This document shows, one piece after another, positions 16,761-44,124 of a stretch of DNA of 52,197 nucleotides. A model generated the notes under the pieces. It saw nothing but the letters and a program-made list of their open reading frames with translations, searched no databases and was not told the DNA's origin. Each line of letters starts with the position of its first letter. Within the stretch, counting starts at the first letter, position 1. This DNA is from Clostridia bacterium (GTDB taxonomy: Bacteria > Bacillota > Clostridia > Oscillospirales > CAG-272): NCBI GenBank assembly GCA_017539425.1, contig JAFYHA010000020.1, positions 1-52,197 on the forward strand, written 5' to 3'. The position numbers and the translations under genes are program-made.

Positions 16761-16818
16761 AATTGCCTGTGTGAGCACGCCGAATTGTGCGGGCGGAGTA
16801 TGAATATGAAAATTTTAC

Positions 16819-16847: not shown

Positions 16848-16937
16848 ATCTCTTACTTAGCATTAGGGCATGGTATGTCTGTTCGAAATTAAATGACCTA
16901 GTAAAGCTAAACAAATCTATTTTGGAGGAAAAATGCA

Positions 16938-19238: not shown

Positions 19239-19275
19239 AGAGTGCTAACTGAATTGTTTTAATACTCTTAAGGAC

Positions 19276-19303
19276 TCGGCAAGCACGTGTGCGTGCTTGC
19301 CGA
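19276..19303 (+). other. Intercistronic stem-loop after oppA (mRNA stabiliser or attenuator)
   Basis: TCGGCAAGCACG-TGTG-CGTGCTTGCCGA 12-bp perfect stem with no U-tract. Confidence 0.65.
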
Positions 19304-19327
19304 CGTCTTGATTTTAAGGAGTCCGTT

Positions 19328-20329: not shown

Positions 20330-20339
20330 GGTAAGAGTT

Positions 20340-22238: not shown

Positions 22239-22253
22239 TTTCGGGTGGTTGCT

Positions 22254-23441: not shown

Positions 23442-23443
23442 GT

Positions 23444-24912: not shown

Positions 24913-24966
24913 GCCAAACAGAAAAGCAGCAGCAAGGTTTTCCTCGCTGCTGCTTTTCTGTTTGGC
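24913..24966. terminator. Bidirectional terminator between the opp and BMC operons
   Basis: 21-bp perfect inverted repeat GCCAAACAGAAAAGCAGCAGC / GCTGCTGCTTTTCTGTTTGGC. Confidence 0.85.
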
Positions 24967-24977: not shown

Positions 24978-25826
24978 TCAATACTTTCCGGCGCAGCCGA
25001 ACAGCTGCATCTTTTCCATAGTCGCTTCCTTGACAGCCAGGCGAACGACAGGCATGATGTCGGTCTGTCCCATACCGGGCTTCCAGACTTCGTGGGCGGC
25101 TTTGGCGAAAGCCGTGTTGATGTCGGTGAAGATATTGACCTTGGAGATACCGTTGGCGATGGTGCGTTTGAAATCGTCGTCGGACAGACCGGAACCGCCG
25201 TGCAGCACCAGAGGCGTGCTGACGATGCTGGCGATCTCCTTGAGACGGTCAAAGTCGAGTCTGGGCTTTTCCTTGTATGCGCCGTGTGCAGTACCGATGG
25301 CAACGGCCAGAGCGTCTACACCGGTGACCGTAGCATATTCCAGAGCCTGCTGAGGATCGGTATAGATGCTGTTGTCGTTGGGGCCGTGGTTCTCCGCACT
25401 GGATTCGTTTGCGCCGACATGACCCAGCTCGCCCTCCACGGAAATGCCGCGTTCATGTGCATAGCGCACCAGAGCACGGACTTTCCCCATGTTGCTGTAA
25501 TAGTCATCCGTGGAGCAGTCGAACATAACGGACGTAAAGCCGAGACGGATGGCTTTCTTGACCATATCCAGGGTCAGACCGTGGTCCAGATGCAGAACGA
25601 TCGGGACGGTCGCCTTTTTGGCCAGAGGAAGCAGGAATGCGGACAAATCCTCCAGGGAGGCATACGGGGTCAGGATCTCGGCCGTGCCGATGATGACCGG
25701 CGCGCGAAGCTCTTCGGCGGCTTCAATAACGCCCTTGGCCATTTCCAGGTCCACGGTGTTGAACAATCCTACGGCATAGTGTTCTGCCTTAGCACGAGGC
25801 AGGAGGTCTCTCATAGTTACAAGCAT
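24978..25826 (-). CDS. Class II fructose/tagatose-bisphosphate aldolase family protein (last gene of the BMC operon)
   Basis: LHLDHG, TSVMFD, VEGELGHVG, AIGTAHG, LVLHGGSG, KVNIFTD. Confidence 0.92.
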   Translation of the reverse strand: MLVTMRDLLPRAKAEHYAVGLFNTVDLEMAKGVIEAAEELRAPVIIGTAEILTPYASLEDLSAFLLPLAKKATVPIVLHLDHGLTLDMVKKAIRLGFTSVMFDCSTDDYYSNMGKVRALVRYAHERGISVEGELGHVGANESSAENHGPNDNSIYTDPQQALEYATVTGVDALAVAIGTAHGAYKEKPRLDFDRLKEIASIVSTPLVLHGGSGLSDDDFKRTIANGISKVNIFTDINTAFAKAAHEVWKPGMGQTDIMPVVRLAVKEATMEKMQLFGCAGKY

Positions 25827-25877
25827 TGCGGTTTACCTTTCTTATCTGAAAAGTGTAGATGATTGATTGGCGCTGGA

Positions 25878-26072
25878 TCAGAGCAGCCAGACAGGGAGTT
25901 CTTCAGTGATCAGAACATAGTTGCCGTGGCGGGGAGCCTTCTTGGGGGCTGCCTTTTTGGCCGGTTCTTTCACAACGGCCTCGGTCTCTTCCGCAGGGGC
26001 GGCGATCACGGTCTCTTTAACGGCTTCCTTTTTGCCCGCTGCACGGGTGATGCTGCTTTTACCGACTGACAT
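25878..26072 (-). CDS. Small low-complexity ParA partner protein (McdB-like candidate), 64 aa
   Basis: ATG 26072 after RBS AAGGAG, overlapping the ParA 3' end; basic N-terminus, A/E/K/P-rich middle, C-terminal ELPVWLL. Confidence 0.65.
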   Translation of the reverse strand: MSVGKSSITRAAGKKEAVKETVIAAPAEETEAVVKEPAKKAAPKKAPRHGNYVLITEELPVWLL

Positions 26073-26850
26073 ATTCCATAATCTCCTTTGCAAGATTTGC
26101 ATATTCTTCAGCGCTTCTGGAACTGCGCTTGTATTCGCCAACAGGCTTGCTGTTGTCCTGAGACCATTCGATGGTGCTGTCGATCCGTACGATCGTACGG
26201 AAGACGGTCAGCCCTTCGTAGGAACCCAGTGTGTCCAGAGTCTGCTTAAAGTACTTTTTCCGTTCATCTGCCTTGGTGATGGCGATACCCAGCAGATGGA
26301 TATCCGGGGCAATGGACTGGACCTGCTTGACGAAATCAAACATGTTCGCCAGACCGAAGAGCCCCCAGGGGCTGGCCTCGACCGGAATGATCAGTTCCTT
26401 TGAGGCACACATGATGTTCATGACCCAGCAGCCAAGCGTCGGGGGCGAGTCAATGAGTATATAATCGTAAGTGCCGGAGGCCACTACGTTGGCCAGACAT
26501 TTTTTCAGGATGAATTCCCGCTGCCACTTTGGAAACAGTTCAAATTCCACCGAGCTCATCAAGGTCGAGGAAGGAATGATATCCAGGCCTTTGTACGGAG
26601 TGGGTACGATGAATGCGGCCAGGTCCTTCTGGTCCCGGATCGCATTGTAGATCGTCTTTCCGGATTCGACAAAGGTCAAGGCGGCTTCCTCATCAAAGAA
26701 GGAGAGGGTCAGGTTCAGCTGCATGTCTCCGTCGATGAGCAGGACTCTGCGGCCGGCCCTTGCCATTTCATATCCGACATTGGCACAGGTCGTGGATTTT
26801 CCGCTTCCACCTTTGTTGTTGGCAAAGCAGATCACTTGGGTAAGACTCAT
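26059..26850 (-). CDS. ParA/Soj family ATPase inside the BMC operon (McdA-like candidate)
   Basis: Deviant Walker A KGGSGKST, LLIDGDMQ, DYILIDSPP; no N-terminal HTH. Confidence 0.9.
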   Translation of the reverse strand: MSLTQVICFANNKGGSGKSTTCANVGYEMARAGRRVLLIDGDMQLNLTLSFFDEEAALTFVESGKTIYNAIRDQKDLAAFIVPTPYKGLDIIPSSTLMSSVEFELFPKWQREFILKKCLANVVASGTYDYILIDSPPTLGCWVMNIMCASKELIIPVEASPWGLFGLANMFDFVKQVQSIAPDIHLLGIAITKADERKKYFKQTLDTLGSYEGLTVFRTIVRIDSTIEWSQDNSKPVGEYKRSSRSAEEYANLAKEIMEYVSR

Positions 26851-26865
26851 ATGGGATGCTCTCCT

Positions 26866-27360
26866 TTACATGGCTTGTGAAGCGGTGCTGCGGCTGCGCC
26901 GGACAGGGCGTCTGACCGTAGGACGGTCACCTGCGCTGTCATCCAGGTAGGCAATGATATCAGATAATCCCTCGCCGGTCACCGAGCTGACCTTGAAGAT
27001 CTTCTTGCATCCGGCTTCCCGTAACCAGTTTTCGGTCATGGGAATGTTGGCATCCGGCTTGTCGATCCCGGTGAGGATTCCGATGACTTCCCGGTTGCAC
27101 ATACAGGTGATATTGGGAGGGAAGAGCGTGAACGGTTCATCTGCACTGCACAGGATCCCGACCACATCCGCCTCGTAGGTGTACAAGGCCAGAGCGGCGC
27201 CAAGTCCGCGGGTCTGCAGGTATTCGCCCGGCGTGTCAATGATCGTATCGGTATAGGAGATGTACTGTGTCTTGCAATAGGACAGTTGTTCTCCCTTGAG
27301 AGCCTGCATCAGGGTCGTCTTGCCGGCGCCTACGCGTCCGGCAAGGATCAGCCTGCGCAT
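26866..27360 (-). CDS. EutP/PduV family microcompartment GTPase
   Basis: GRVGAGKTTL, KTQ, IDTPGEY, VSSVTGEG. Confidence 0.92.
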   Translation of the reverse strand: MRRLILAGRVGAGKTTLMQALKGEQLSYCKTQYISYTDTIIDTPGEYLQTRGLGAALALYTYEADVVGILCSADEPFTLFPPNITCMCNREVIGILTGIDKPDANIPMTENWLREAGCKKIFKVSSVTGEGLSDIIAYLDDSAGDRPTVRRPVRRSRSTASQAM

Positions 27361-27364
27361 GGGA

Positions 27365-27739
27365 CTATGTCCTCGTCAGCGGGCAGACCGTAAACCCAAG
27401 CGTGTCCCGCACGTATGTGCAGATGGCCTGGAAGGAGGCTTCTACCTGGGAAACCGTTCCGGTCAGGATCAGCGTGCCGCTGAAACGGTCTACAAAGCCG
27501 AGCTCCGCGCCTGAGGATTTAAGCGCGATATCCGCAATGATGACGGCTGTCTCGGCCGGACTGATCGTCATGACACCGATCGCCGCCTTTGAATATTCAA
27601 CTTGAGGGTCCAGACCGAGTTTATAGTACAAAATCGGGTCCGGATTCGCGACAATGTGCGCCAGTGTGATCTGCCGTCCGGGAACCAGTTCCTGGACAAT
27701 ACGCATCTTGTCATGAAGGGCGATTGGATCTTCACTCAT
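27365..27739 (-). CDS. BMC shell protein, permuted PduU/EutS type
   Basis: RIVQELVPGRQITLAH, AIGVMTISPAE, FVDRFSGTL. Confidence 0.92.
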   Translation of the reverse strand: MSEDPIALHDKMRIVQELVPGRQITLAHIVANPDPILYYKLGLDPQVEYSKAAIGVMTISPAETAVIIADIALKSSGAELGFVDRFSGTLILTGTVSQVEASFQAICTYVRDTLGFTVCPLTRT

Positions 27740-27759
27740 AATTAGGTGACTCTATCTTT

Positions 27760-28305
27760 CTACAGATTGTCCCACAGTTCTTCGTGCGGGGCTGGAATGA
27801 CCGTATAATTGTTCAGCATGCTCTGTTCCTGAGCGTGCTTGGCACCCGCCTCTACGGCGGCGGTGACGTCTCCGACATCCCCGGTGACCAGGACGATGCC
27901 CTTGCCGCCCATGCCTCTGGAGAGCCGGAGCTCATAGATGGCGACCTTTGCGGTCTTGACGGCAATATCTGCGGCTTTGACGATGCTGGCGGCACTGTAG
28001 GTCTCGATGATGCCAAGACTCCCTTTGCGCTCGGGCGCGACCGTTCCGTACAGGGCGGTGATGACCTGAGGGTCGATCCGGCCCATCAGGGACACGTCGA
28101 CAAGGGTGGACGCAAAGCGTTCCTTGACATGCTCTTCGGCAGCGGTTACATCTGCGATGGAACCGGTCAGCATGATCTCAAACTTGCCCGGACAGACCGG
28201 ATGCGCCGAGACCAGACGGACTCCTGCGCTCTTCAGCGCAGCATCCGTAGCTTCTATGCCCGCAGCAATGCTTTTCAATTCAATTACGCCTACGGCTTGG
28301 TACAT
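27760..28305 (-). CDS. Tandem-domain BMC shell protein, PduT-like (BMC-T)
   Basis: Two BMC domains; CPGKF motif carrying the Fe-S-ligating Cys of PduT; GMGGKG. Confidence 0.9.
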   Translation of the reverse strand: MYQAVGVIELKSIAAGIEATDAALKSAGVRLVSAHPVCPGKFEIMLTGSIADVTAAEEHVKERFASTLVDVSLMGRIDPQVITALYGTVAPERKGSLGIIETYSAASIVKAADIAVKTAKVAIYELRLSRGMGGKGIVLVTGDVGDVTAAVEAGAKHAQEQSMLNNYTVIPAPHEELWDNL

Positions 28306-28329
28306 AGTGGTTTCGTTCCTTCTGTCACG

Positions 28330-29664
28330 TTAGTTTTCGATGATGATCTTCGTCGGATCGACGAAGATGACCTTCCCGTCGATGGTTGCGTGCTGCGGTA
28401 TGGACAGCCCGGTTCCCGGATCGGCGATCCGCTGGCCTTTGGTCACGTGGTCTCCCACACTGACACAAGGCACACTCGGTGCGCCGATATGAGGATTCAT
28501 ACGGATTTCCACATGGTTTGTGGGCTGCAGTTCCGGCACATAGGTCGGGGTCTTGTCGTATTTGCGGATGCCAAGGCTTTCCATCCACTTGACGGAGTGA
28601 ACCCGCGTCAGGGGACGGTCTTCGGCAATGGTATAGGTTTTGCCCTCCGGAGCGGAGAAGCGGATATGGTCTTTGGCTAGAATGGCTTTGTGCTTGGCAA
28701 TCACGGCTCTTGGCGAAATGTACTGGCAGCAGGCCAGGATCTCGCAGACGCCGCAGGAGGAGCACAGGGAAGCGGTCTTGATCAGTTCGGGCTGATCCTC
28801 TCCCAGTGCGCTGGCCGCCACACGCACATGTTTGTGCGGTTCCAGCGGGTAACCCAGATTGAATCTCGGGCACAGGTCCGTGCAGCGGGTGCACTGGCAG
28901 CACACCGAGGAAGCAATGGCCAGATGGGCTTCCGGTTTGCGCTGCTTGACCATTACGGCGGGAGTGTTCTCGGGAATGATGATCAGCGACTTGGTCGTTT
29001 TGGTCACGATGTGGGTGTTCGGATTGACGATACGGCCCATGGAAGGCCCGCCGTCCAGTACGGCGTCGCCTTCAGGTACGCGGATACCCAGGTGGCTGAA
29101 CAGGTCGGACACGCGCATACCGATTGGAGCCTTGACAACGACAGGATTATCGATATCGCCGTTGATGGTCAGGTTTTTTTCGGTCAGAACGGTTCCGCAG
29201 ACCACGGCGTTGCGGATGTTGAAGATCGTCTCCAGATTGAAGACGATCACACCCTGCGTGATCGGCAGCTGTCCGGGCTGGACCAGCCGGCCGGTCGTTT
29301 CATAGATGAGAGCGATCTCATCACCCATCGGGTAAACGTTCGGAAGTTGCTTGACCGTGATGTCCGGTGCCAGTTCCTGACCTTCGGACAGCCCGAGTTT
29401 TATGCAATTGTGTTTTTTTATGCCGATCAGGCAACGCTTCATACCTACGGCCCGCATCACGATGGTGGCGCCCTCCACGACAAGCGGAAGATAGGCACTC
29501 ATCAGCGAGTAGTCCGTGTAGAGCATAGGCTCGCATTCCGCACCGTTGATGACCAGCGTATCCGCTCCTTCTGCCAACTTGGCAAAGGAAGGGAAGCCGG
29601 CGCCGCCGGCGCCCACGATGCCTGCGGTCTGCATGACCTGCTTCAATTCTTCAAATGTAGTCAA
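28330..29664 (-). CDS. PduS-like/RnfC-like flavoprotein with SLBB and 4Fe-4S domains
   Basis: GIVGAGGAGFP, INGAECEP, YPMGDE, GGPSMG, CCQCTRCTDLCP, CSSCGVCE, HIGAPS; TTG start after AAGGAG. Confidence 0.9.
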   Translation of the reverse strand: MTTFEELKQVMQTAGIVGAGGAGFPSFAKLAEGADTLVINGAECEPMLYTDYSLMSAYLPLVVEGATIVMRAVGMKRCLIGIKKHNCIKLGLSEGQELAPDITVKQLPNVYPMGDEIALIYETTGRLVQPGQLPITQGVIVFNLETIFNIRNAVVCGTVLTEKNLTINGDIDNPVVVKAPIGMRVSDLFSHLGIRVPEGDAVLDGGPSMGRIVNPNTHIVTKTTKSLIIIPENTPAVMVKQRKPEAHLAIASSVCCQCTRCTDLCPRFNLGYPLEPHKHVRVAASALGEDQPELIKTASLCSSCGVCEILACCQYISPRAVIAKHKAILAKDHIRFSAPEGKTYTIAEDRPLTRVHSVKWMESLGIRKYDKTPTYVPELQPTNHVEIRMNPHIGAPSVPCVSVGDHVTKGQRIADPGTGLSIPQHATIDGKVIFVDPTKIIIEN

Positions 29665-29717
29665 AACAGACTCTCCTTGACCGGACGGGGATCAGACCGG
29701 GTCCGGTAAAAACGCAA

Positions 29718-29990
29718 TTATTCGTTCGTGTAATCGATGATACCGACGATCGCGGCATCTGCGGGGATCTCGTTGCCCTCACGATCCTTGGGCAAAGCCA
29801 CACGGGCTGAACTGCCGGTCGTGATCAGGACGGTTTCACCGATACCTGCGCCCACCGCGTCTATGGCGATCATATATTTGTCCGTTTCCTTACCGTTTTC
29901 AATGATATGGACCTGCATGAACTTGGATCCGAGCAGGCTCTCACACTTGCGGGTGGATACGACATTGCCGATGACTTTTGCAACTAACAT
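29718..29990 (-). CDS. BMC vertex pentamer, EutN/CcmL family (BMC-P)
   Basis: AKVIGNVVSTRK, AIDAVGAGIGE.VL..TGSSAR, DAAIVGIID. Confidence 0.95.
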   Translation of the reverse strand: MLVAKVIGNVVSTRKCESLLGSKFMQVHIIENGKETDKYMIAIDAVGAGIGETVLITTGSSARVALPKDREGNEIPADAAIVGIIDYTNE

Positions 29991-30011
29991 TGGCCTGGCC
30001 CTTTCTATGAA

Positions 30012-30683
30012 CTATTTCGCGACGGTTACGCGGCTTCCGTTGCCGATGCCTGCGGCATTGGCGTCATCCGTATCCACGTGCATTTCCAGACGAAATTTGT
30101 CGCTGACGCGGATCTGGACGTCATACCAGAGCGTGTGCTTGGTGCCGACGACATCGACGTTGATGTAGTCTCCGTCCTTTACGCCGAAACGGGCGGCGTC
30201 CTCGGGAGACATATGGATATGACGGTTGGCAATGATGCAGCCCTCGTCGAGCTGGACAATGCCTTTCGGACCGACGATAGTGATCGGGGCGGATCCGGAG
30301 AGTTTGCCGGATTCACGCACCGGAGGTTTGACTTTCAGGACATAGGAATCCGTCACCGAGATCTCGACCTGGGACTGCTTACGCAGCGGGCCGAGTACGC
30401 GGACCCCTTCAATGGGCCGCATGGAGGGACCGATCAGGGTCAGGGTTTCCTTGCAGGCGAACTGACCGGGTTGGGACAGGTCCTTGATCGGGGTGAGGGA
30501 ATAGCCTTTTCCGAACAGAATATCGACATGCTCCTGAGTGAGGTGAATATGCCGGTTGGATACGCCGATCGGAATGGACATGTCAGCGGTTGCAGCCGCA
30601 CCTGCGGAAGAACCGGACGGAGCCATTTCGGCAAGCGCGCGTTTGACCATTTCGGCTATCTGTTCACTGGTATAGGATGCCAT
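30012..30683 (-). CDS. pduL: Phosphate acyltransferase PduL with N-terminal encapsulation peptide
   Basis: GVSNRHIHL, LSQPGQFA, RVLGP.R, RHIHMS, MHVDTDDANA; N-terminal SEQIAEMVKRALAEM; start ATG 30683. Confidence 0.93.
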   Translation of the reverse strand: MASYTSEQIAEMVKRALAEMAPSGSSAGAAATADMSIPIGVSNRHIHLTQEHVDILFGKGYSLTPIKDLSQPGQFACKETLTLIGPSMRPIEGVRVLGPLRKQSQVEISVTDSYVLKVKPPVRESGKLSGSAPITIVGPKGIVQLDEGCIIANRHIHMSPEDAARFGVKDGDYINVDVVGTKHTLWYDVQIRVSDKFRLEMHVDTDDANAAGIGNGSRVTVAK

Positions 30684-30915
30684 GATGAAAGTTCCTTTCT
30701 TGTCCGCAGGGAATTGCGGAACCGAATCTATAGAATCGCCTTGCGGCGGTGCATTCAAAGTAAGGCAGCGTACGGAATGCTGCAGGACAGAGTTGAATCG
30801 TCCGGGAAGTTTTTTAAGCCCGACCGATGAGATGGCCCGGGACCATCCCATCGGTGGTGATACTCAGGGAGTATCGGGTTGTTGAGCGCTCAAATATCAG
30901 TTACGGAAAATCCGA

Positions 30916-31188
30916 TTAACCAATCTTCGGCAGAATCTTCTCAACATCAGAGTGCGGTCTCGGAATGACATGTGTCGCAATGACTTCGCCAAGGCGGGCA
31001 GCAGCAGCGCCACCAGCTTCGACAGCGGCCTTCACAGCACCGACATCACCGCGGACCATAACGCTGACCAATCCGGAACCGATCTTCTCGGAACCGATCA
31101 GGACAACGTTCGCAGCCTTTACCATAGCATCGGCAGCTTCGATCGCAGCAACAAGACCTCTGGTTTCAACCATACCAAGTGCTTCCAT
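30916..31188 (-). CDS. BMC hexamer shell protein, PduA/EutM type
   Basis: [42 protein letters not shown]. Confidence 0.96.
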
Positions 31189-31290
31189 TTGAGTATTCCT
31201 CCTGTTTAGAATGACTAGAGTAATGTTTTCCGCCTGTGGCGGAAGGGTTTGCCGCCCGGCAGTTGTGGAAGGGCGGCTCTATCATGATCC

Positions 31291-31578
31291 TCAGGCCTTT
31301 TTGACCGGCTTGAGGAATTTCATGACTTCGGGGTGGGGACGGGCAATGACTTCGCCCAGTTTGACCTTACCCACTTTGGCCGCTTCCGCCTTGCCGGCAT
31401 CCAGGGATGCCTGGCAAGCGGAAACAGTTCCTTCAACAACAACCGTGACCAGTCGTCCGCCCAAACGCTTTTCACAGCGAATGAACGTTACGTCCGCGGC
31501 TTTGCACATGGCGTCCAATGCAGCGATTGCGGCGACCATAGCCTGGACTTCCAGTAACGCGATTGCTTTTTCTTCCAT
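31291..31578 (-). CDS. BMC hexamer shell protein (divergent)
   Basis: AIALLEV..MVAAIAALDAMCKAADV, KRLGGRLVT, VIARPH. Confidence 0.9.
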   Translation of the reverse strand: MEEKAIALLEVQAMVAAIAALDAMCKAADVTFIRCEKRLGGRLVTVVVEGTVSACQASLDAGKAEAAKVGKVKLGEVIARPHPEVMKFLKPVKKA

Positions 31579-31605
31579 GTTGAATGTCTTCCTTTATTGT
31601 GTCAA

Positions 31606-31881
31606 TTATTTGATCACGGGCAGGATCTTTTCAACATCGTCGTGCGGTCTCGGGATGACATGCGTAGCAATGACTTCTCCGAGGCGGGCAGCAGCGGCAC
31701 CACCGGCTTCAACGGCGGACTTGACAGCACCGACGTCGCCGCGGACCATTACGCTGACCAGACCGGAACCGATCTTCTCAGAGCCGATCAATCTGACGTT
31801 TGCAGCCTTTACCATAGCATCGGCAGCTTCGATCGCTGCGACAAGGCCTCTGGTTTCAACCATTCCAAGAGCTTCTAACAT
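31606..31881 (-). CDS. BMC hexamer shell protein, PduA/EutM type (close paralog of 30916-31188)
   Basis: Same motifs as the 30916 copy; only a few residues differ. Confidence 0.96.
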
Positions 31882-31944
31882 AGTTTTGTTCTCCTTTTAA
31901 AAATAGGCATTGTTTTTTGTTTTTCTTGTATTGGATAAGTCCGG

Positions 31945-32262
31945 TCAGATGGTGCTGTTCCGACCCAAGGCGTTGAGCCGGGCAAACCATTCAATCTCTT
32001 CGGATTGACGCGGAATTATTTTGTGGGTGATGTACATCCCTCTCTTTTTGGCTTCGTCTACGCCCGCCATCGTGGCGGCTTCCACGGAGGCCACGTCGCC
32101 TTCAATCTTGACGACCATCACAAGCGGAACCTCACACTTTTCGGCGTTGGCCGGCTTGTTCTTATCGATGGCCACGATCTCAACGGGAGCGGTCTTCGCG
32201 GCTTTGTCGGCGACCACTATGGAAGTTACGAACCCGAAGCATTCAATCATGCCGAGTGCCAT
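31945..32262 (-). CDS. BMC hexamer shell protein (divergent, with pore-loop insertion)
   Basis: ALGMIECFG....ADKAAKTA.V, EGDVASV, IIPR; extra DKNKPANAEKCEVP loop. Confidence 0.85.
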   Translation of the reverse strand: MALGMIECFGFVTSIVVADKAAKTAPVEIVAIDKNKPANAEKCEVPLVMVVKIEGDVASVEAATMAGVDEAKKRGMYITHKIIPRQSEEIEWFARLNALGRNSTI

Positions 32263-32278
32263 GGGTCAGCACCTCGAT

Positions 32279-33484
32279 TCAGCCGGGGATGTAGCAGACT
32301 TTGATGCCCTGCTGCGCCACGTTGACTTCGCAGGCTTCGTTCATCTTGTCGAGCGGGAAGGTGTGGGTGATCAGATCTTCGATCGGAATGTTCATTTCCT
32401 TGCACTGACGCAGGAAAGCCATCGTTACGGGGTAATCCTCTGCGGAGTAAGCCCAGGAACCGATCAGGTTGATCTCCTTGTTGCACATGGCAAAGTGCGG
32501 GTTGACCTGGTAGTCGCCGTTGTTCACGAAGAAGCCCATCTCGCACATGCCGCCGCCGCGACGGATGAAATCATAGATGTCGGCAGCTGCTGCAGGAGCA
32601 CCGGTGCACTGGTAAGCAAAATCCGCGCCTGCACCGTCCGTCAGACCCTGGACAATGGCTACGCGCTCTTTCTTGTCCGTGATCTCGCGGAAGTTGATCG
32701 TGGTCTTGGCACCCAGCTTCTTGGCCATTTCCAAACGCTTGGGCGAGCCGTCGATCGCGATGACGTGGTTGATGCCTGCCGCGCGAAGCACGGAGCACAT
32801 CATCAGGCCTACCGGGCCGCAGCCCTGAAGGACGACCTTACTGTTGAAATTCAGCAAGCCGGTCTTCTGTCCGCGGAGCAGAGCATGCACGCACACGCAG
32901 GCCACTTCCAGGAGCATTCTCTGGTTCAGATTCAGGTCGTTGACCACGAAATACGTGGAACCCGGATCCCGGATGAGAATGTATTCGGCGAACCATCCGC
33001 GGAACGGATTGCTCGGATCGATCGGGACAAGCCCGTAAATGCCCTGATTCCAGCACAGGTTTTTCTGGCCGGGGTGGTTGCGGCAGATAAAGCAGTTGTC
33101 GCAGCTGATGACCGAAGTGACCAACTTGTCTCCGACCTTGATCGGATGACCTGCCGTATCTTCCTTGATGTTCTTGCCGAGGTAGACAATCTCACCGGTG
33201 CCTTCATGTCCGAGGACAAGCGGGCACAGACCGAAGGGGTCGCCTTTCCATTCATGGACATCGGTACCGCAGACGCCGCAGCCTTCGACTTTGACGAGGA
33301 TGTCATTGTCGGTCAGCTCAGGCATCGGGAACTCTTTGACCACGAACTTTTTCGGTTCTGCCAGGACCGCGGCCTTTGCGGATTTCGGAATCGCGCAGCA
33401 GGCAGTGGATCCTGTTGAGGAGGTGGACAGTTCGCTCAGGATCTTGCGAACGACCTCTTCAACTTGAGAAGCTGAAACGTCCAT
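32279..33484 (-). CDS. Zn-dependent (MDR family) alcohol dehydrogenase with N-terminal encapsulation peptide
   Basis: GVCGTDVH, LGHEGTG, CDNCFIC......NLC, GCGPVG; N-terminal SQVEEVVRKILSEL. Confidence 0.92.
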   Translation of the reverse strand: MDVSASQVEEVVRKILSELSTSSTGSTACCAIPKSAKAAVLAEPKKFVVKEFPMPELTDNDILVKVEGCGVCGTDVHEWKGDPFGLCPLVLGHEGTGEIVYLGKNIKEDTAGHPIKVGDKLVTSVISCDNCFICRNHPGQKNLCWNQGIYGLVPIDPSNPFRGWFAEYILIRDPGSTYFVVNDLNLNQRMLLEVACVCVHALLRGQKTGLLNFNSKVVLQGCGPVGLMMCSVLRAAGINHVIAIDGSPKRLEMAKKLGAKTTINFREITDKKERVAIVQGLTDGAGADFAYQCTGAPAAAADIYDFIRRGGGMCEMGFFVNNGDYQVNPHFAMCNKEINLIGSWAYSAEDYPVTMAFLRQCKEMNIPIEDLITHTFPLDKMNEACEVNVAQQGIKVCYIPG

Positions 33485-33508
33485 AGTGTATATTCCTTTC
33501 TTGTTTTA

Positions 33509-34963
33509 TCAAACGATGCGGAAGTTGTCCACCATCACGCAGCGGCGGGAGCGGGTGAAGCTCTTGCCGGAGGTCAGGCCCTCACCGGTCGGCCCGGCGA
33601 TGGTAAAGGTGGTATGACCTTCGCCTCCGAAGCCGATGCCGGCATAGGAAGGCGCGTTCTTGACAAAGATGGTGGTTTCCACCGCACGCGCGAACCGGGT
33701 CAGGTTGTCGATGTTCTTGGAATGCATATGCGCGGTGTGGCGGTTGCCGTGCTCAGCCTTGACAGCCAGGTCAATGGCTTCGTCGATGTTCTGCACACGG
33801 ACGATGCCCAGGATCGGCATCATCAACTCGGTCTGCACGAACGGGTGCTCAAACGGAACCTCCGCGATAGCGCAGCGGATCTCGTCACCCACATGGATGC
33901 CGATCTTCTCGAGCAGGACCTTCGCGTCGCGGCCTACGCAGTCGCGGCTGACAGCACATTTGACCTTGCCGTCCTTGTCGGTGGTCTTGTTGATGACCAC
34001 ATCCGCAAGACGGTCGGCCTGTTCACGGGTCAGCAGGTAGCAGCCGTTCTGGAGCATGTATTTGATCAGGTCGTCCGCGATGTTGGCAAACGCGAACACT
34101 TCCTTCTCGGCGATGCAGGGCAGGTTGTTGTCGAAGGTGCATCCGTCGATGATATCCTTGGCCGCTTTCTTGATGTCGGCGGTATCGTCCACGATGACGG
34201 GCGGGTTGCCGGCGCCGGCGCCGATGGCCTTCTTGCCGGAACTCAGCACGGATTTGACAACGCCCGGGCCGCCGGTGCAGACCAGCAGACGGATCAGCGG
34301 GCTCTTGTACATGATCTGGGCCGTGTCCAGGGTGGGCTTGACGACGGAGGCGACCAGGATGGGCGGTCCGCCTGCAGCCGCGCTGGCGCGGTTGACCAGG
34401 TCGACGGCATAGTTGGATGTGGCGATGGCGTTGGGATGCGGATTGAAGACCACACCGTTGCCGGCCACGATCATGCCGATGCTGTTGCAGATGACGGTTT
34501 CAGACGGGTTTGTAGAGGGAGCGATCGCGCCGACCACGCCGAACGGGGCCATTTCCGTAAGCGTGAGACCGTGATCGCCGGTCTTGACCGTCGGAGTGAT
34601 GTCCTCGGTCCCCGGCGTCTTGTCCGCGATCAGGTTGTGCTTGGCGATCTTGTGATCCACGCGGCCCATCTTGGTTTCGGCGACACCCAGAGCCGCCATG
34701 GTCGGCGCCTCCAGTCTTGTCAGGCGACGGATCTCAGTAATGATTTTCTCCCGATTGGCCAGGGACATCGAACGCACGGCCTTGTAGCCTTCGTTGGCGG
34801 CCGCGATGGCGTCGTTCATATCCTCGAAGATACCGATCAGCTTGCGCCCGTTGTACTGGGTTGCATCCCAGTTGGCCGCGGGCTGAGCGGGAGTGTTCTT
34901 CATCTGGGCCAAAACATTTTGTACGATCTCATTGATCTGAGCGTCTGTCCAGTTAATAGCCAT
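33509..34963 (-). CDS. Acylating aldehyde dehydrogenase (EutE/PduP family) with N-terminal encapsulation peptide
   Basis: PSTNPSET, TGGPGVV, GAGAGNPP, FDNNLPCIAEKE, ELMMP, GPTGEG; N-terminal DAQINEIVQNVLAQM. Confidence 0.95.
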   Translation of the reverse strand: MAINWTDAQINEIVQNVLAQMKNTPAQPAANWDATQYNGRKLIGIFEDMNDAIAAANEGYKAVRSMSLANREKIITEIRRLTRLEAPTMAALGVAETKMGRVDHKIAKHNLIADKTPGTEDITPTVKTGDHGLTLTEMAPFGVVGAIAPSTNPSETVICNSIGMIVAGNGVVFNPHPNAIATSNYAVDLVNRASAAAGGPPILVASVVKPTLDTAQIMYKSPLIRLLVCTGGPGVVKSVLSSGKKAIGAGAGNPPVIVDDTADIKKAAKDIIDGCTFDNNLPCIAEKEVFAFANIADDLIKYMLQNGCYLLTREQADRLADVVINKTTDKDGKVKCAVSRDCVGRDAKVLLEKIGIHVGDEIRCAIAEVPFEHPFVQTELMMPILGIVRVQNIDEAIDLAVKAEHGNRHTAHMHSKNIDNLTRFARAVETTIFVKNAPSYAGIGFGGEGHTTFTIAGPTGEGLTSGKSFTRSRRCVMVDNFRIV

Positions 34964-35007
34964 TTGAATTCTCCTGAAAGTAATTTGTCGGATTCCGGAT
35001 GGAATCG

Positions 35008-35745
35008 TTAGTTTTCGTAAAGTTGAGCCAGAACCTTTGCGGTCACTTCATCTACCGTTTTCTGGTTCTCGGGACTGAGTTTCACTTCGGCGGGCGTTGA
35101 GGCCTTCGGGGAAGTGCAGCAACAGCCGGATTTGGTGGCCGGTGCAGCGGCGGCTCCGGAACGAAGGGCATCCAAGGCGGCCCCTACCGCATTCATACGG
35201 CAGTAGTACTCGCAGGCGTCGATGTTGTCGAACGCATTGTCCAGCGTGTCGGCTACGGCGAAAGCACTGTTGCCGCCGAACAGGAATGCGCAGTGATCTT
35301 TGAGAACGCTGCGGAAGGTGTCGTCGGCTGTGTTGGAAGTCTTGTCATAGGAACCGGCTGGGATCACGCCCAGATAAACCCGGTTCTCCGGAAGAACACA
35401 GTTGTCCACGGCTACGCCCTTGATGGCATATGCGGTCGCCACATTGGGCTGTGCATGGATGATGGCGCGGATGTCCGGGCGCAGGCTGTACATCAGGATG
35501 TGCAGCTTGGCTTCGGAGGTCGGTTCGTAAATGCCCGATCCGATCTTTTTGCCGTTGGCATCCACTTTCACGATCATGTCGCGGGTCAGGCGGTATTTGC
35601 AGACGCCGCGGGGCGTGACCAGATACTCGTTGTCGCTCAGCTTGTAGGAAATGTTTCCGTGCTTGGCGGCAACCAGCTGTTTCGCGTAAAGCCGGTGGGC
35701 GGCCTCGACCATTTGATCTCGGATTTGATATTCGGATACGATCAT
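35008..35745 (-). CDS. Class II aldolase/adducin paralog lacking two Zn ligands (probable pseudoenzyme) with C-terminal encapsulation peptide
   Basis: GNIS, TP.GV.K and PTSE are kept, but HAH becomes HAQ and NHG becomes GNS; C-terminal TVDEVTAKVLAQL. Confidence 0.8.
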   Translation of the reverse strand: MIVSEYQIRDQMVEAAHRLYAKQLVAAKHGNISYKLSDNEYLVTPRGVCKYRLTRDMIVKVDANGKKIGSGIYEPTSEAKLHILMYSLRPDIRAIIHAQPNVATAYAIKGVAVDNCVLPENRVYLGVIPAGSYDKTSNTADDTFRSVLKDHCAFLFGGNSAFAVADTLDNAFDNIDACEYYCRMNAVGAALDALRSGAAAAPATKSGCCCTSPKASTPAEVKLSPENQKTVDEVTAKVLAQLYEN

Positions 35746-35791
35746 CTGTCGGTTGCATGTCCGCTAAGGGAAATGCAAGCCCCCTTTCTAA

Positions 35792-36655
35792 TTATTTGTA
35801 AAGCTCGGCCATGACTTTTGCCGTTACCGCATCGATGAACGCGGCGTTAGATTCTGTCTTGGCTGAAATTGGATGTTCAATGGAAACGTCCTTGAAATCC
35901 GAAGCGCCCGGCTCTTCCATCTTCTTGTTGGCCAGAGGCTCGATGTTCTGTTTGCAGCGGCAATTCTCCGTGCCCAGATTCTTGCATTTGGAGCAGCCGG
36001 GATGACGGCCTGGAACATTGAACTTCTTGCGGAGTTCCATCAGCTTCTCCAACTCTTCGCAGGACAGTTCTTTTTCCCCGCCGAGCTGACGGGCCATCAG
36101 GGTGATCTTGGCATAGAACTCCAGCGTTTCCATGTTGAAATACGCTTTCATCAGCGTGTTGCCGACGGTCAGCGCGCCGTGGTTGGCCAGAAGGAACGCG
36201 TCGTGGTCCTGAATGTAGGGCATCAGGGAGTTCGGGATCTCGTCCGTGGACGGCGTTCCGTACGCGCAGGTCGGAACGGATCCCAGGAACAGGGAAGCTT
36301 CGGCCATCGTGTATTTGTCCAGCGGCACGTGGGCCACGGCGAACGCGGTGGCCGTAGGCGGATGGGCGTGCACAACGGCGCGTACGTCTTCGCGCTCGGC
36401 ATAGACTTTCAGATGCACCTTGAATTCGGAGGAGGGATTGTACGGGCTGGATTCCAGCTTATTGCCGTTTGCATCCACGCGGAGGATCATATCCGGGGTC
36501 ATAAACCCTTTGGATACGCCGGTAGGGGTGCAGTAGAATTCGTTCGGGCCGACCTTGACGGAAATGTTGCCGTCATTGGCCGCGACAAAACCGTTCTGGT
36601 ATACGCGGCGGCCGATCTCGCAGATTTCTTTTTTAATTTCAAATGCAGATGGCAT
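35792..36655 (-). CDS. Class II aldolase (L-fuculose-1-phosphate aldolase-like) with C-terminal encapsulation peptide
   Basis: NDGNIS, TPTGVSK, PSSE, VHAHP, LANHGA; C-terminal FIDAVTAKVMAEL. Confidence 0.92.
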   Translation of the reverse strand: MPSAFEIKKEICEIGRRVYQNGFVAANDGNISVKVGPNEFYCTPTGVSKGFMTPDMILRVDANGNKLESSPYNPSSEFKVHLKVYAEREDVRAVVHAHPPTATAFAVAHVPLDKYTMAEASLFLGSVPTCAYGTPSTDEIPNSLMPYIQDHDAFLLANHGALTVGNTLMKAYFNMETLEFYAKITLMARQLGGEKELSCEELEKLMELRKKFNVPGRHPGCSKCKNLGTENCRCKQNIEPLANKKMEEPGASDFKDVSIEHPISAKTESNAAFIDAVTAKVMAELYK

Positions 36656-36676
36656 ATCGTTTGTACCGTCTTTCGT

Positions 36677-37870
36677 TTATTTGACCAGATTGAGGGTGTC
36701 CAGGGCGATCATCAGTTCCTCGTCGGTCGGGATGACCAGGGTGCGGACCTTTGCGTCCGGAGCGGAGATGTCCACGTTCTCGCCGCGCGGGCAGGACATA
36801 TTGAAATCCTCGTCAATGGAGATGCCCAGATAATCCATATCGCGGCAGACCGCGGCGCGGAAGGCACGGTCGTTCTCGCCGATGCCGGCGGTGAAGAGCA
36901 CGATGTCCACTCCGTTCATTTCCGCAATATACGATCCGATGATCTTCTTGGCGTCCTGGACCAGGACGTCCAGGGCCAGCTTGGCGCGTTCGTTCCCGGC
37001 GTCGGCGGCCGCCCACACGTCTCGCATGTCGCTGGACACGCCGGACAGGCCGAGCAGACCGGATTTCTTGTTGAGAACGTCGTCCATCTGGTCGGGGGTC
37101 AGGTTTTCCTGTTTCATCAAGTAGGTCACGATGGTGGGATCAATGGAGCCGCACCGTGTGCCCATGGGAAGACCTTCCTGCGGAGTCAAGCCCATCGCGG
37201 TATTGATGACCTTGCCGTGATCCACGGCGGTGATGGAAGAACCGTTGCCGCAGTGGCAGGTGATGATCAGGAGCTGTTCCAGAGGAACGCGGACGAATTC
37301 GGCGGCTTTGTGAGCCACATATCTGTGGGAGGTTCCGTGGAACCCGTATCTGCGGACCTGATATTTTTCGTAGTACTCGTAGGGCAGGGCGTAGATGTAG
37401 GATTTCTCCGGCATCGTGCTGTGGAACGAGGTATCAAACACAGTCACCATGGGCTTGCCCGGCATTGCCTTGCGGCAGGCGTTGATGCCCTTGATGGCGG
37501 GCGGGCCGTGAAGCGGGTTGATGCCCACGATGGATTCCAGATAGCGGAGGACCGAATCCGTAACGATCATGGATTCCTGGAGCTTGCCGCCGTGTGCTAC
37601 GCGGTGTCCGACCGCGTCGATCTCGTCGACGCTCTTGATCACGCCCAGATTGCTGTCCGTCAGGAGCTTGAGCACCAGCGCGATGGCATCGTCATGATCC
37701 TTGAGCTCGATTTCGGACTTGTAATCGTCCTTGCCGGGGCGCTTGTGCGTGACGGCGCCTCCGATTCCAATCTTTTCGCAAAGCCCTTTCGCGATGACCT
37801 TGTTCTCGTCCATATCGAACAACTGATATTTCAGGGACGAGCTTCCGGCATTGACTACCAGGATTTTCAT
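36677..37870 (-). CDS. ackA: Acetate/propionate kinase (first gene of the BMC operon)
   Basis: MKILVVNAGSSSLKY, GHRVAHGG, PLH, FDTSFH, RRYGFHGTSH, MGTRCG, FTAGIGEN, PTDEE. Confidence 0.95.
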   Translation of the reverse strand: MKILVVNAGSSSLKYQLFDMDENKVIAKGLCEKIGIGGAVTHKRPGKDDYKSEIELKDHDDAIALVLKLLTDSNLGVIKSVDEIDAVGHRVAHGGKLQESMIVTDSVLRYLESIVGINPLHGPPAIKGINACRKAMPGKPMVTVFDTSFHSTMPEKSYIYALPYEYYEKYQVRRYGFHGTSHRYVAHKAAEFVRVPLEQLLIITCHCGNGSSITAVDHGKVINTAMGLTPQEGLPMGTRCGSIDPTIVTYLMKQENLTPDQMDDVLNKKSGLLGLSGVSSDMRDVWAAADAGNERAKLALDVLVQDAKKIIGSYIAEMNGVDIVLFTAGIGENDRAFRAAVCRDMDYLGISIDEDFNMSCPRGENVDISAPDAKVRTLVIPTDEELMIALDTLNLVK

Positions 37871-38229: not shown

Positions 38230-39954
38230 TCAATGCACCAGATGGCGCTTGATCTTCTTGGAAGTCGTTTTTTCAAATTCTTCATCGCGGAATTCCACAG
38301 ACTGGATCTGCTTGTACCGCACGAGTTTCTTGTTTTCGATCTGGATCTTGTCCCGGATGCAGTCCTGCATATCCTCTGCCGGGGTCCCGTCCGGGAACGC
38401 AGAGGCGTTGGGATAGACGATGGCGACCAGGTTGATCGTTTCGCCGTCTTCGCCCTTCCGGCCGACCACGACGCTTTCCGCGATCTCCGGGATCCCGGCC
38501 AGGTATTCTTCGATCTCCTCCGGGAAGACGTTCTTGCCGTTTTCCAGAACGATGACGGATTTTTTGCGCCCGGTGATATAGATATATCCGGACTTGTCCA
38601 TATAGCCGATGTCTCCGGTGCGGAAGTAGCCGTCCTCGGTAAAGACCTCGGCGCTGGCTTCCGGATTCTTGTAGTAGCCGAGCATCACATTGTCGCCCTT
38701 GACACAGATCTCGCCTTCCACGAAACCGCGGTCGTTGGGCTCCGCGCCCTCTCCGGAATCGATCCGGACCGTGCAGCCGACTACTGCCGGACCAACCGAG
38801 CCGTGTTTCGGGGCATAGTACGGAGTGACGGCGACCAGGGGGGAGCACTCGGTGATGCCGTAGCCCTCACAGATCTGGATACCGAATTCTCCGAACACGT
38901 CCACCATTTCAGGGTTGAGCGGAGCACCTCCGCAGATGATCTTCTTCAGGTTGCCCCCAAACGCGGCCGTGATCTGCCCAAACAGTTTCTGGGACAGGTT
39001 CAGACCCACGAAACGGGCGACCCGGGATACCTTGAGACCGATCTTCAGGTTCCGCTCCATCTCTTTGCGCTTGACTTCGTCCATGATCTTCTTGTACATC
39101 GTGTTGACGAACAGGGGGACTAGGATCAGACCGGTGGGCTTGAACAGGGCGAAGTTGCGCAGCACATGGCGCAGACTGTCGTTGATACAGACGGTCACGC
39201 CCAGGCTGAGTTCGGCCAGCGTGATGCAAAGTTCATAGGTGTGGTGGATCGGGAGGACCGAGACGGTCGTATCTTCTCCCGAAAAGTCCACGCTCGTATA
39301 GGCGGCGCGGCAGGCGGCGACCACATTGCGTTCGCTCAGCATCACGCACTTGCTGCTTCCGGTCGTCCCGGAGGTGAACAGCATCACGGACATACGGTCC
39401 ATATCCGTACTGTCCTCGAGGGTGACTTCCTTGGTTTCGTAAGCGGCCTTTCCAATCTCCAGGATCGTATCCAGAGGAAGGATCCAGGATCCGGTCGTAC
39501 GGGATTCCGTGACGGAAGACATCATCGGGATGAAGGTGTGCACGGAGGGGTGGGACTCCATGATTGGAGCAAATTTCTCATGGAACGAAGGAGAATAGGC
39601 CACGGCATCGATTTCGGCAAAGGCCAGAAAGCCGGAGATCTCCTCGGGCTTGAGATCCTTGTCCATCGGGACCGCGACCCCGCCTGCGATGATGGCGGCC
39701 AGATAGGTCGAGATCCAGAACGGGGAAGTGTCTCCGATCACGGCGATCCGCTTTCCGCCCAGCCCCAGTTTTTTCAGGCCTGCAGCTTCTGAGAATACGA
39801 TACCCTGGAAATCCAGGTAGGTGATGTCTGCGATATGGTTGGAATCATAATAGCGGAATGCGGTTTTATATTGATGGGTGCTCAGGTTCTCGACCAGCTG
39901 GTACAGAGACTGCAGGTCCGGGAGCGCACGGTCATGATATTTGGTTTTAATCAT
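38230..39954 (-). CDS. Long-chain acyl-CoA synthetase (AMP-binding family)
   Basis: FTSGTTGSSK, LPIHHTYE, EGYGITECSP, FRTGDIG, ITGRKK, NGKNVFPEE; start ATG 39954 after AGGAGG. Confidence 0.92.
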   Translation of the reverse strand: MIKTKYHDRALPDLQSLYQLVENLSTHQYKTAFRYYDSNHIADITYLDFQGIVFSEAAGLKKLGLGGKRIAVIGDTSPFWISTYLAAIIAGGVAVPMDKDLKPEEISGFLAFAEIDAVAYSPSFHEKFAPIMESHPSVHTFIPMMSSVTESRTTGSWILPLDTILEIGKAAYETKEVTLEDSTDMDRMSVMLFTSGTTGSSKCVMLSERNVVAACRAAYTSVDFSGEDTTVSVLPIHHTYELCITLAELSLGVTVCINDSLRHVLRNFALFKPTGLILVPLFVNTMYKKIMDEVKRKEMERNLKIGLKVSRVARFVGLNLSQKLFGQITAAFGGNLKKIICGGAPLNPEMVDVFGEFGIQICEGYGITECSPLVAVTPYYAPKHGSVGPAVVGCTVRIDSGEGAEPNDRGFVEGEICVKGDNVMLGYYKNPEASAEVFTEDGYFRTGDIGYMDKSGYIYITGRKKSVIVLENGKNVFPEEIEEYLAGIPEIAESVVVGRKGEDGETINLVAIVYPNASAFPDGTPAEDMQDCIRDKIQIENKKLVRYKQIQSVEFRDEEFEKTTSKKIKRHLVH

Positions 39955-40071
39955 AAAAGAAACGCCTCCTGTAGGGTACTGGCTCCGTATGCCGGAGCGG
40001 CAGACAAAAGACGTTGCCATTATAGTCGCTTTGAACCAAAAAGTCAAGTGTGCGCATTTTTGCCTGGTTGC

Positions 40072-40100
40072 TTGACAGTCGGAATGACGGGGTGTACAAT
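40072..40100 (+). promoter_or_regulatory. Sigma-A promoter upstream of the riboswitch
   Basis: TTGACA-17 nt-TACAAT with TG extension. Confidence 0.75.
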
Positions 40101-40106
40101 ACAATC

Positions 40107-43947: not shown

Positions 43948-44124
43948 AGGAGGATCCTCCTCATAGTATGGTTTTCGGCCCAGGGGCCACTTGCATTGTA
44001 ACATGCGGCAAACGGGATTGGCAATATGGAAAGCAGAGTTTGCGAAAAAAGTCCAACCCCTTGACAGTAGAATGATTAAACGTAATAATGTTGTTGTAAA
44101 AAGTTTTCAGGAGGTTGATCATCT

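Follow-up and report, generated by a model that had tools for sequence, protein, structure and literature searches.

The closest described relative of the system reported here is the bacterial microcompartment (BMC) locus of C. phytofermentans (Cphy_1174-1186), which belongs to GRM5, one of the locus types built around a glycyl-radical enzyme (GRE). Petit 2013 describes this locus as induced by, and required for, the fermentation of fucose and rhamnose to propionate and propanol. Ferlez 2019 reports PduS and PduT in 57 of 57 GRM5 loci counted. It describes the propanediol dehydratases of GRM3, GRM4 and GRM5 as lacking an N-terminal encapsulation peptide (EP) and carrying a unique insertion of ~60 residues, predicted to serve as the EP instead, and GRM5 activases (AEs) as the only ones without a ferredoxin-like insertion. 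Aldolase-containing loci have also been described as the PVM type of Planctomycetes and Verrucomicrobia (Erbilgin 2014) and as PVM-like loci (Axen 2014; Sutter 2021), and Axen 2014 voices the suspicion that the latter are fragments of GRM5. In Ravcheev 2019, co-localisation of the aldolase with a B12 diol dehydratase was already noted. A propanediol dehydratase was counted there in 10 of 13 gut Firmicutes with this BMC (co-localised in 6, absent from 3), and the BMC itself was concluded to run the conversion of lactaldehyde to lactate and propanediol. Here we describe an 18-gene BMC operon at positions 24978-37870, minus strand, of a 52,197-nucleotide contig of a Clostridia bacterium (GCA_017539425.1, JAFYHA010000020.1); this whole stretch is referred to as the window. 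The operon represents the known fucose/rhamnose GRM5 system in a variant form whose signature enzyme is detached, and not a new aldolase-only organelle. From homology and synteny, we consider it probable that it provides the shell, core and positioning genes of a GRM5-type fucose/rhamnose metabolosome, and that the signature GRE 1,2-propanediol dehydratase and its activase are supplied in trans from contig C97 of the same genome.

The window is contig C121 of an assembly of 2.10 Mb in 148 contigs, rated 90.4% complete. Gene families were assigned by Pfam and NCBIfam profile searches of the window proteins. The preliminary description of this DNA, made from the letters alone, had listed 18 co-oriented genes, and the searches confirmed both their number and their content: 18 consecutive ORFs run on the minus strand, all 18 frames are open, and 17 were named by Pfam or NCBIfam. 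A genome-wide search found BMC-domain genes nowhere else, making this the only BMC locus of the assembly. The operon is real, and it is complete as a shell-plus-core module. Its genes, from head to tail, are as follows.

36677-37870, minus strand: AckA/PduW-like acetate/propionate kinase (Acetate_kinase, 468.8 bits; TIGR00016, 481.7 bits, above its cut-off)
35792-36655, minus strand: Ald1, a class II aldolase (Aldolase_II, 173 bits)
35008-35745, minus strand: Ald2, a divergent class II aldolase paralogue (Aldolase_II, 109 bits)
33509-34963, minus strand: CoA-acylating aldehyde dehydrogenase (AldDH) of the PduP/EutE family (Aldedh; PRK15398, 666.8 bits, above its cut-off)
32279-33484, minus strand: zinc-type alcohol dehydrogenase (Zn-ADH; ADH_N and ADH_zinc_N), a predicted lactaldehyde/propionaldehyde reductase
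31945-32262, 31606-31881, 31291-31578 and 30916-31188, minus strand: four single-domain BMC-H proteins (PF00936, 68-103 bits each)
30012-30851, minus strand: PduL-type phosphotransacylase (PTAC, 262 bits)
29718-29990, minus strand: BMC-P pentamer protein, single copy (EutN_CcmL, 95.6 bits)
28330-29664, minus strand: PduS-like flavin/FeS oxidoreductase (Complex1_51K, RnfC_N and Fer4_17)
27760-28305, minus strand: PduT-like tandem-domain BMC-T (two BMC domains, 138.5 bits)
27365-27739, minus strand: PduU/EutS-like permuted BMC-H, directly after PduT (BMC, 44 bits at residues 53-120)
26866-27360, minus strand: PduV/EutP small GTPase (PduV-EutP, 162.7 bits)
26059-26850, minus strand: ParA/MinD-family ATPase, McdA-like, with a classical KGGSGKST Walker A motif (AAA_31, 168 bits)
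25878-26072, minus strand: 64-aa McdB-like ORF, the one ORF with no Pfam or NCBIfam family
24978-25826, minus strand: class II ketose-bisphosphate aldolase (FBA) paralogue (F_bP_aldolase, 306 bits; TIGR00167, 265 bits, above its cut-off)

The core of the operon is collinear with that of the C. phytofermentans GRM5 locus: aldolase, AldDH, Zn-ADH, BMC-H genes, PduL, BMC-P, PduS and PduT follow one another as in Table 1 of Petit 2013, which gives 15-87-fold induction of that locus on fucose and rhamnose, and a PduU-like shell protein is shared as well. As in the GRM5 description of Ferlez 2019, the window combines a class II aldolase (PF00596) bearing a C-terminal EP with a Zn-type reductase (PF00107 and PF08240), the Pfam pair given there for the GRM5 'LR'. 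PduS and PduT are present in the window, and the activase encoded on C97 is without a ferredoxin insertion. The isomerase genes lie elsewhere in the genome, as they do in C. phytofermentans according to Petit 2013. Unlike GRM5 loci, the window has its GRE and activase on another contig; it adds a head AckA, the zinc-ligand-deficient Ald2, PduV, a ParA/McdB-like pair and the FBA paralogue, and no DeoR regulator adjoins the operon.

By content, the locus answers to the description of PVM-like loci in Axen 2014 and Sutter 2021, judged from that description: it has a class II aldolase, AldDH and shell genes, no GRE, and a gut Bacillota background. To this extent the preliminary description of an aldolase-containing metabolosome operon, PVM-like by locus content alone, agrees with our gene calls. 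It differs from PVM-like loci in having an alcohol dehydrogenase and no regulator; the passages of Axen 2014 on these loci place a core alcohol dehydrogenase in only one of them and a DeoR regulator in most. With the PVM of Planctomycetes and Verrucomicrobia (Erbilgin 2014) it shares a homologous EP-tailed class II aldolase, an acetate kinase in the locus and the same sugars. It departs from the PVM in its single BMC-P against four BMC-H, in PduT and PduU, and in its Zn-ADH reductase. The use of this zinc enzyme, which the preliminary description had correctly seen and had contrasted with a usual iron-dependent alcohol dehydrogenase, is no oddity, as it is the usual GRM5 enzyme in the accounts of Axen 2014 and Ferlez 2019.

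Pfam scans of the window found no diol dehydratase, EutB, GRE, sugar kinase, isomerase or regulator within the operon, and neither a GRE (PF01228/PF02901) nor an activase (PF04055) in 24978-37870 or its flanks. The earlier statement that a glycyl-radical signature enzyme is absent thus stands for the locus and fails for the genome. A genome-wide search for the glycyl-radical domain gave three matches, one of which is an 868-residue GRE on contig C97 (3401-6007, minus strand) with an adjacent activase. It scored 850 bits on TIGR01774, the PFL2/glycerol-dehydratase family model, above the cut-off. Among solved structures it is closest to the R. inulinivorans diol dehydratase, a GRM5 enzyme (5i2a; 1111 bits); a single alignment pairs its residues 21-864 with 10-839 of that protein. 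With the free glycerol dehydratase 1r8w, two separate segments align and residues ~604-667 stay unmatched, the same residues that align with 5i2a. The genome therefore holds a GRE of the propanediol-dehydratase type that has no EP at its N-terminus and carries the internal insertion of ~60 residues. The domains of the C97 activase are Radical_SAM and Fer4_12 only, with no ferredoxin (PF00037) insertion, which fits the feature that Ferlez 2019 reports for GRM5 activases alone. A distal glycyl-radical enzyme with an encapsulation peptide was the finding that the preliminary description had named as incompatible with its proposal, and the C97 enzyme, with its BMC-type insertion as the predicted peptide, is such an enzyme.

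The C97 pair is a true satellite and not an artefact of a contig break; it lies between a release factor 3 gene on one side and a rhamnogalacturonase-like gene and a GH78 rhamnosidase gene on the other. In a maximum-likelihood tree made by a quick search only, this GRE and its orthologue in the closest relative, G001, fall inside the group of GREs from BMC loci. An orthologue was found in all four of the other genomes checked; in three it lies away from the BMC stretch that was fetched, and in the fourth it is probably contiguous with the locus. A conserved satellite site can be set aside: in G001, nothing in the 5.6 kb that precede the distal GRE matches the C97 neighbours. The two remaining GRE-like genes, on C85 and C17, score no higher than 165 bits against any solved GRE, with 147 and 109 bits for 5i2a; being distant from every solved enzyme and not linked to the BMC locus, they were rejected as its partners. 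The C17 gene (L016, 5702-7894) has an activase-like gene beside it at 4656-5690, and the C85 gene (L015, 3-2150) runs off the contig end and adjoins a PfkB kinase gene. A limited term search of the literature found no BMC paper on a GRM5 satellite beyond Axen 2014, which does not prove that there is none.

Related loci were mapped by tblastn with the window proteins, using the best 80 of more than 580 Ald1 relatives in species genomes. Most of these 80 come from uncultured gut Clostridia (Oscillospiraceae, Acutalibacteraceae and similar), and Clostridium methylpentosum DSM 5476 is among them. Since 27 of the loci were too short to judge, 53 were informative. A GRE follows PduT in 30 of the 53, lies between Ald1 and AldDH in 5 and is partial in 1, while 11 have a B12 diol dehydratase operon (PduCDE, reactivase and PduO) in the gap between Ald1 and AldDH. 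A diol dehydratase of either kind is therefore found in 47 of the 53 informative loci (radical enzyme 36, B12 enzyme 11). Five loci hold the aldolase without a BMC core, and one, L028, is window-like, with an aldolase 89% identical to Ald1.

In two other genomes from the family of the window's organism, G256 and G243, the gene order is AckA-Ald1-AldDH-ZnADH-BMC-H-PduL-BMC-P-PduS-PduT-GRE-AE-PduU-PduV-ParA. GRE-AE sits there exactly between PduT and PduU, giving PduT-GRE-AE-PduU-PduV-ParA; the stretch seen in G256 begins at the last BMC-H gene. In the window and in L028, PduT and PduU are joined directly, with no GRE-AE at that junction. L028 belongs to an independent metagenome-assembled genome (MAG) and has the same arrangement as the window at 60-100% amino-acid identity, and a metagenome contig, L130, keeps the first 13 genes.

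The loci combining the aldolase with a B12 enzyme (C. methylpentosum type) are alike in their orthologous AckA, Ald1, AldDH, Zn-ADH and BMC-H (51-87% identity). They differ from the window in carrying PduCDE, reactivase and PduO between Ald1 and AldDH and, in L056, RhaA-RhaB and DeoR upstream, and in that the window genome has no PduC match. Pfam was run on L056 only, and the other 10 loci of this group were identified by tblastn with the L056 PduC. On L056, a C. methylpentosum scaffold, the B12 diol dehydratase, reactivase and PduO occupy 10868-16910 between the EP-tailed aldolase and AldDH; this species also has a distal orthologue of the C97 GRE (62% identity). RhaA and RhaB both lie just upstream of the Ald1 orthologue in 5 of the 11 B12-type loci, C. 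methylpentosum included.

The preliminary description had called the substrate undefined and had proposed searching the genome for sugar kinases and isomerases. The search yielded an L-rhamnose isomerase, RhaA, on contig C113, which passes both equivalog cut-offs, and a RhaB-like kinase on C49. Of three FGGY kinases, the latter is the one whose nearest relatives are E. coli rhamnulokinase (321 bits) and a fuculokinase (307 bits); those on C111 and C97 were ruled out as RhaB, being XylB and GlpK. The description of the substrate as undefined no longer holds: the core is collinear with the C. phytofermentans fucose/rhamnose locus, the aldolase follows RhaA-RhaB in the B12-type loci just named, and RhaA and a RhaB-like kinase are present in the genome. 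A tblastn search of the whole assembly, rated 90.4% complete, with the C. methylpentosum PduC gave no match at E <= 1e-3, and a genome-wide search for EutB was likewise negative, so that a B12 route of the propanediol-utilisation (PDU) type with PduCDE was rejected. A genome-wide search with PF02286 (PduC) also gave no match, although the control of that search gave none either.

Ald1 has intact HAH and NHG zinc motifs and a C-terminal extension of ~75 residues of linker and targeting helix, and its best solved relatives are L-fuculose-phosphate aldolases. It is predicted to be a fuculose/rhamnulose-1-phosphate aldolase, and homology makes cleavage of a ketose-1-phosphate, as originally proposed, most likely. 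Free-standing relatives of this BMC aldolase apparently exist: in the five loci without a BMC core gene in the 10 kb seen (L085, L086, L089, L090 and L103), the aldolases are 72% identical to Ald1 over residues 6-225 and show no match to the C-terminal tail.

Encapsulation-peptide-like terminal extensions with helix-like periodicity, as the preliminary description had noted, are visible in all five cargo proteins (Ald1, Ald2, AldDH, Zn-ADH and PduL). They were scored with a script as the percentile of their hydrophobic moment among all 15-residue windows. Three of the five fall in the top 5%: the AldDH N-terminus (95.8th percentile), the Zn-ADH N-terminus (99.7th) and PduL (98.6th). The true start of PduL is probably Met57 at 30683, which yields its N-terminal amphipathic helix. 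The tails of the two aldolases score lower (60.9th and 84.5th) yet can be aligned with the C-terminal peptide conserved among BMC aldolases, planctomycete ones included. AckA, whose ATG at 37870 is preceded by GGAGG, and the FBA paralogue have no targeting extension.

From homology and synteny, a pathway can be proposed in which L-rhamnose, and possibly L-fucose, would be freed by rhamnosidases and rhamnogalacturonan-degrading enzymes. In the cytosol the sugar would be isomerised by RhaA and phosphorylated by the RhaB-like kinase. Ald1 would cleave the ketose-1-phosphate to dihydroxyacetone phosphate (DHAP) and L-lactaldehyde. Zn-ADH would reduce lactaldehyde to 1,2-propanediol, which the trans-encoded GRE, probably recruited through its internal ~60-residue insertion, would dehydrate to propionaldehyde. 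AldDH, PduL and AckA may then convert propionaldehyde through propionyl-CoA and propionyl-phosphate to propionate and ATP, and the alcohol dehydrogenase may reduce it to propanol and so recycle NAD+. Relaying electrons for the activation of the GRE is the probable task of PduS and PduT. PduV and the ParA/McdB-like pair probably position the organelles, and the FBA paralogue probably has a cytosolic part in the handling of DHAP.

Several observations weigh against this proposal. Genome-wide, no clear fucose isomerase was found, the single weak Fucose_iso_C match (39-43 bits) being to a 676-aa protein on C56. Both Ald1 and Ald2 fall under every NCBIfam equivalog cut-off, those of FucA and RhaD in the case of Ald1, whose specificity given above is a prediction. 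In the quick tree a long branch (0.73) carries the C97 GRE, which is sister to a type-B in-locus GRE and not to the in-locus GREs of its own family, a placement that leaves a simple relocation of GRE-AE unsupported, and in G001 the distal GRE has other neighbours than in the window's genome. As GRE-AE lies outside the operon, its co-regulation and its encapsulation are things we infer. The dehydratase counts of Ravcheev 2019 (present in 10 of 13, co-localised in 6) and its conclusion of lactate and propanediol as products point the other way, and the incompleteness of the MAG is a further caution.

The main rival is a PVM-type chemistry in which the compartment only splits lactaldehyde, through lactyl-CoA to lactate and ATP on one side and to 1,2-propanediol on the other, with the distal GRE separate, either non-encapsulated or serving another purpose. 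The locus itself holds no dehydratase, Ravcheev 2019 reached the same conclusion for gut Firmicutes (again with co-localisation in only 6 of 13 and absence from 3), and Axen 2014 lists an acetate kinase in the locus as a PVM feature too. We nevertheless regard this scheme as unlikely, since the distal GRE keeps the BMC-associated insertion that the free glycerol dehydratase is missing, PduS and PduT are present as in every GRM5 locus counted in Ferlez 2019, GRE-AE lies inside the operon in genomes of the same family, and 47 of the 53 informative related loci carry a diol dehydratase. That the operon serves some other ketose-phosphate, such as a pentulose-1-phosphate yielding glycolaldehyde or another deoxy or sulfo sugar, so that the aldehyde is neither lactaldehyde nor propionaldehyde, seems to us quite improbable. 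It would suit the scores of Ald1 and Ald2 below all equivalog cut-offs, the promiscuity that Axen 2014 ascribes to class II aldolases, the GH31 gene and the FGE-sulfatase-domain gene in the window, and the extra ketose-bisphosphate aldolase paralogue at the operon end. It sits poorly with Ald1 orthologues directly after RhaA-RhaB in 5 of 11 B12-type loci including that of C. methylpentosum, with a partner GRE of the diol-dehydratase type, and with rhamnosidase and rhamnogalacturonase-like genes that flank the GRE and occur in the window.

A decaying GRM5 remnant that has lost its signature enzyme and forms no working organelle could account for the absence of GRE-AE exactly where same-family genomes have it and for the lost zinc ligands of Ald2. 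This is highly improbable given 18 open frames, an arrangement kept at 60-100% amino-acid identity in the independent L028 and over the first 13 genes on L130, an intact GRE and activase elsewhere in the genome, and an Ald2 that belongs to a conserved family and is no one-off wreck. The GRM5-type metabolosome with a trans-encoded dehydratase thus remains the preferred reading. Axen 2014 and Ravcheev 2019 had already caught sight of such a situation; what the locus offers of its own are the degenerate EP-bearing aldolase Ald2 and the Trp-ended partner of ParA.

Ald2 is 35% identical to Ald1. Of the two class II aldolases originally named, both do match Aldolase_II, and the second is without two of the three zinc histidines of class II aldolases, having HAQ and GNS where Ald1 and other BMC aldolases have HAH and NHG. 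The catalytic histidines of E. coli FucA are His92, His94 and His155 (4fua row of a table in PMC4887040), and the residues of Ald2 were mapped to this numbering through a constant offset of 4 residues. All 15 aligned members of the Ald2 family, 48-82% identical to the Ald2 of the window, show these losses. Ald2 has a Cys-rich linker, and its family keeps a C-terminal targeting-like helix that closely resembles that of Ald1. In a set of 5.8 billion proteins, 54 other clusters belong to the family at >=46% identity. Ald2 was not found in 400 genomes of the order at E <= 1e-50, and in 398 other genomes of the class a search at E <= 1e-60 gave a single match, which scores as Ald1 does against that model, and no Ald2. 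A metagenome scan gave four loci, of which two were too short, one is the window-like L130, and one, L133, has a relative at 55% identity. Housekeeping genes surround the latter, and within 10 kb of it there is no BMC gene, leaving the idea that Ald2 is always BMC-linked unsupported. No description of a zinc-deficient BMC aldolase paralogue was found in a limited term search of the literature, and the passages of Axen 2014 consulted are silent on it; its absence from the literature is not thereby proven. Ald2 may be a non-catalytic scaffold or adaptor that nucleates the core or recruits cargo, which is a guess.

Next after the ParA-type ATPase comes a small protein of charged, low-complexity sequence; one of its last five residues is aromatic, and acidic residues are close by. 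The arrangement is like that of McdAB, here in a BMC locus. Orthologues of the 64-aa partner occur after ParA in four other genomes. The five family members are located as follows.

Window, 25878-26072, minus strand: the 64-aa partner
L028, 12003-12194: partner orthologue
L122, 8219-8557: partner orthologue
L125, 132-359: partner orthologue
L123, 17427-17714: partner orthologue

The alignment of these five sequences shows an MSVGKxSIxR N-terminus (the most distant member has Ala at position 2), a variable K/A/E/P/T-rich middle, and a C-terminus of the form acidic-acidic-(L/M)-P-x-aromatic-L-L, which is EELPVWLL in the window. Trp fills the aromatic position in the window and L028, whereas two genomes have Tyr there and one has Phe. 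MacCready 2021 and Basalla 2024 give Tyr or Phe for McdB-like proteins near PDU and GRM loci and an invariant Trp for carboxysome McdBs; the window partner thus differs from those published near PDU and GRM loci, and its family has W, Y or F at one aligned position. This variation parallels the mutational series published for that position. Of 300 other genomes of the order searched, 3 have a ParA orthologue at >=56% identity, and in G256 and G243 the orthologue ends the BMC locus. In the near-complete G250, of the same order, the ParA/partner pair (C1:1723721-1724485) lies ~570 kb from the BMC locus (C1:1145796-1150132), so the positioning module can also be detached. A predicted complex of a ParA dimer with the small partner received a score of zero, which counts neither for nor against the pair. 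The two proteins are probably a McdAB-like positioning pair, their binding and spacing role being predicted from gene order and sequence features.

Taken together, these features raise the tentative possibility of an 'unbundled' metabolosome. Its GRE, encoded in trans, would find the organelle by its insertion alone, Ald2 would act as a scaffold or adaptor through its targeting helix, and the ParA partner would work with a carboxysome-type Trp-acidic C-terminus. If this were true, the locus would make it possible to study, in a natural system, how a single shell is recognised by modules for cargo, scaffold and positioning. More broadly, the case indicates that microcompartment typing from the locus alone can mislead: what would be filed as 'PVM-like, substrate unknown' becomes, after a search of the whole genome, a probable ordinary fucose/rhamnose-to-propionate organelle, which supports the view of PVM-like loci as fragments of GRM5, suspected in Axen 2014. 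The case is also relevant to the dispute between Ravcheev 2019 and the work of Petit and Zarzycki over whether the dehydratase step takes place inside such compartments, as the trans-encoded GRE here keeps its BMC-type insertion. In the gut, the proposed pathway would make propionate and propanol from deoxy-sugars of plant and mucin origin. For questions of cargo scaffolding and of metabolosome positioning, leads are offered by the Ald2 family and by the Trp-ended partner of ParA.

At the tail of the operon, the FBA paralogue is below every FBA and GatY equivalog cut-off and passes only that of the broad ketose-bisphosphate aldolase subfamily; another copy is encoded on contig C11. It is probably co-transcribed with the operon and was not seen after the ParA/partner pair in G256. 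Elements consistent with the promoter and terminator claimed earlier were found as sequence matches around the 18 genes.

38058-38031 and 37973-37945, minus strand: two sigma-70-like promoter matches upstream of the operon, consensus matches only
38221-38202, minus strand: terminator-like hairpin closing the upstream AMP-ligase gene
24919-24960, minus strand: likely operon terminator after the FBA stop, a perfect 15-bp hairpin with a 12-nt loop and a T-rich tail

The last of these (24960-24919) was read directly from the sequence; it is missing from the scanner output because its loop of 12 nt exceeds the scanner limit of 8 nt. Rfam at gathering thresholds reported two tRNAs only in the whole window, and no riboswitch or leader.

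Just upstream of the operon, beyond the hairpin at 38221-38202, lies an AMP-binding acyl-CoA-ligase-like gene (38230-40104, minus strand), which is also upstream in the window-like metagenome contig L130 (70% identity). Convergent with the operon is an Opp-type ABC transporter (16938-24610, plus strand) with an unusually long family-5 binding protein of 766 aa and a 632-aa permease. Further upstream, an 899-aa protein with an FGE-sulfatase-type domain and glycoside-hydrolase-like regions (41305-44004, minus strand) is followed by two rhamnogalacturonase-like genes at 44125-47399.

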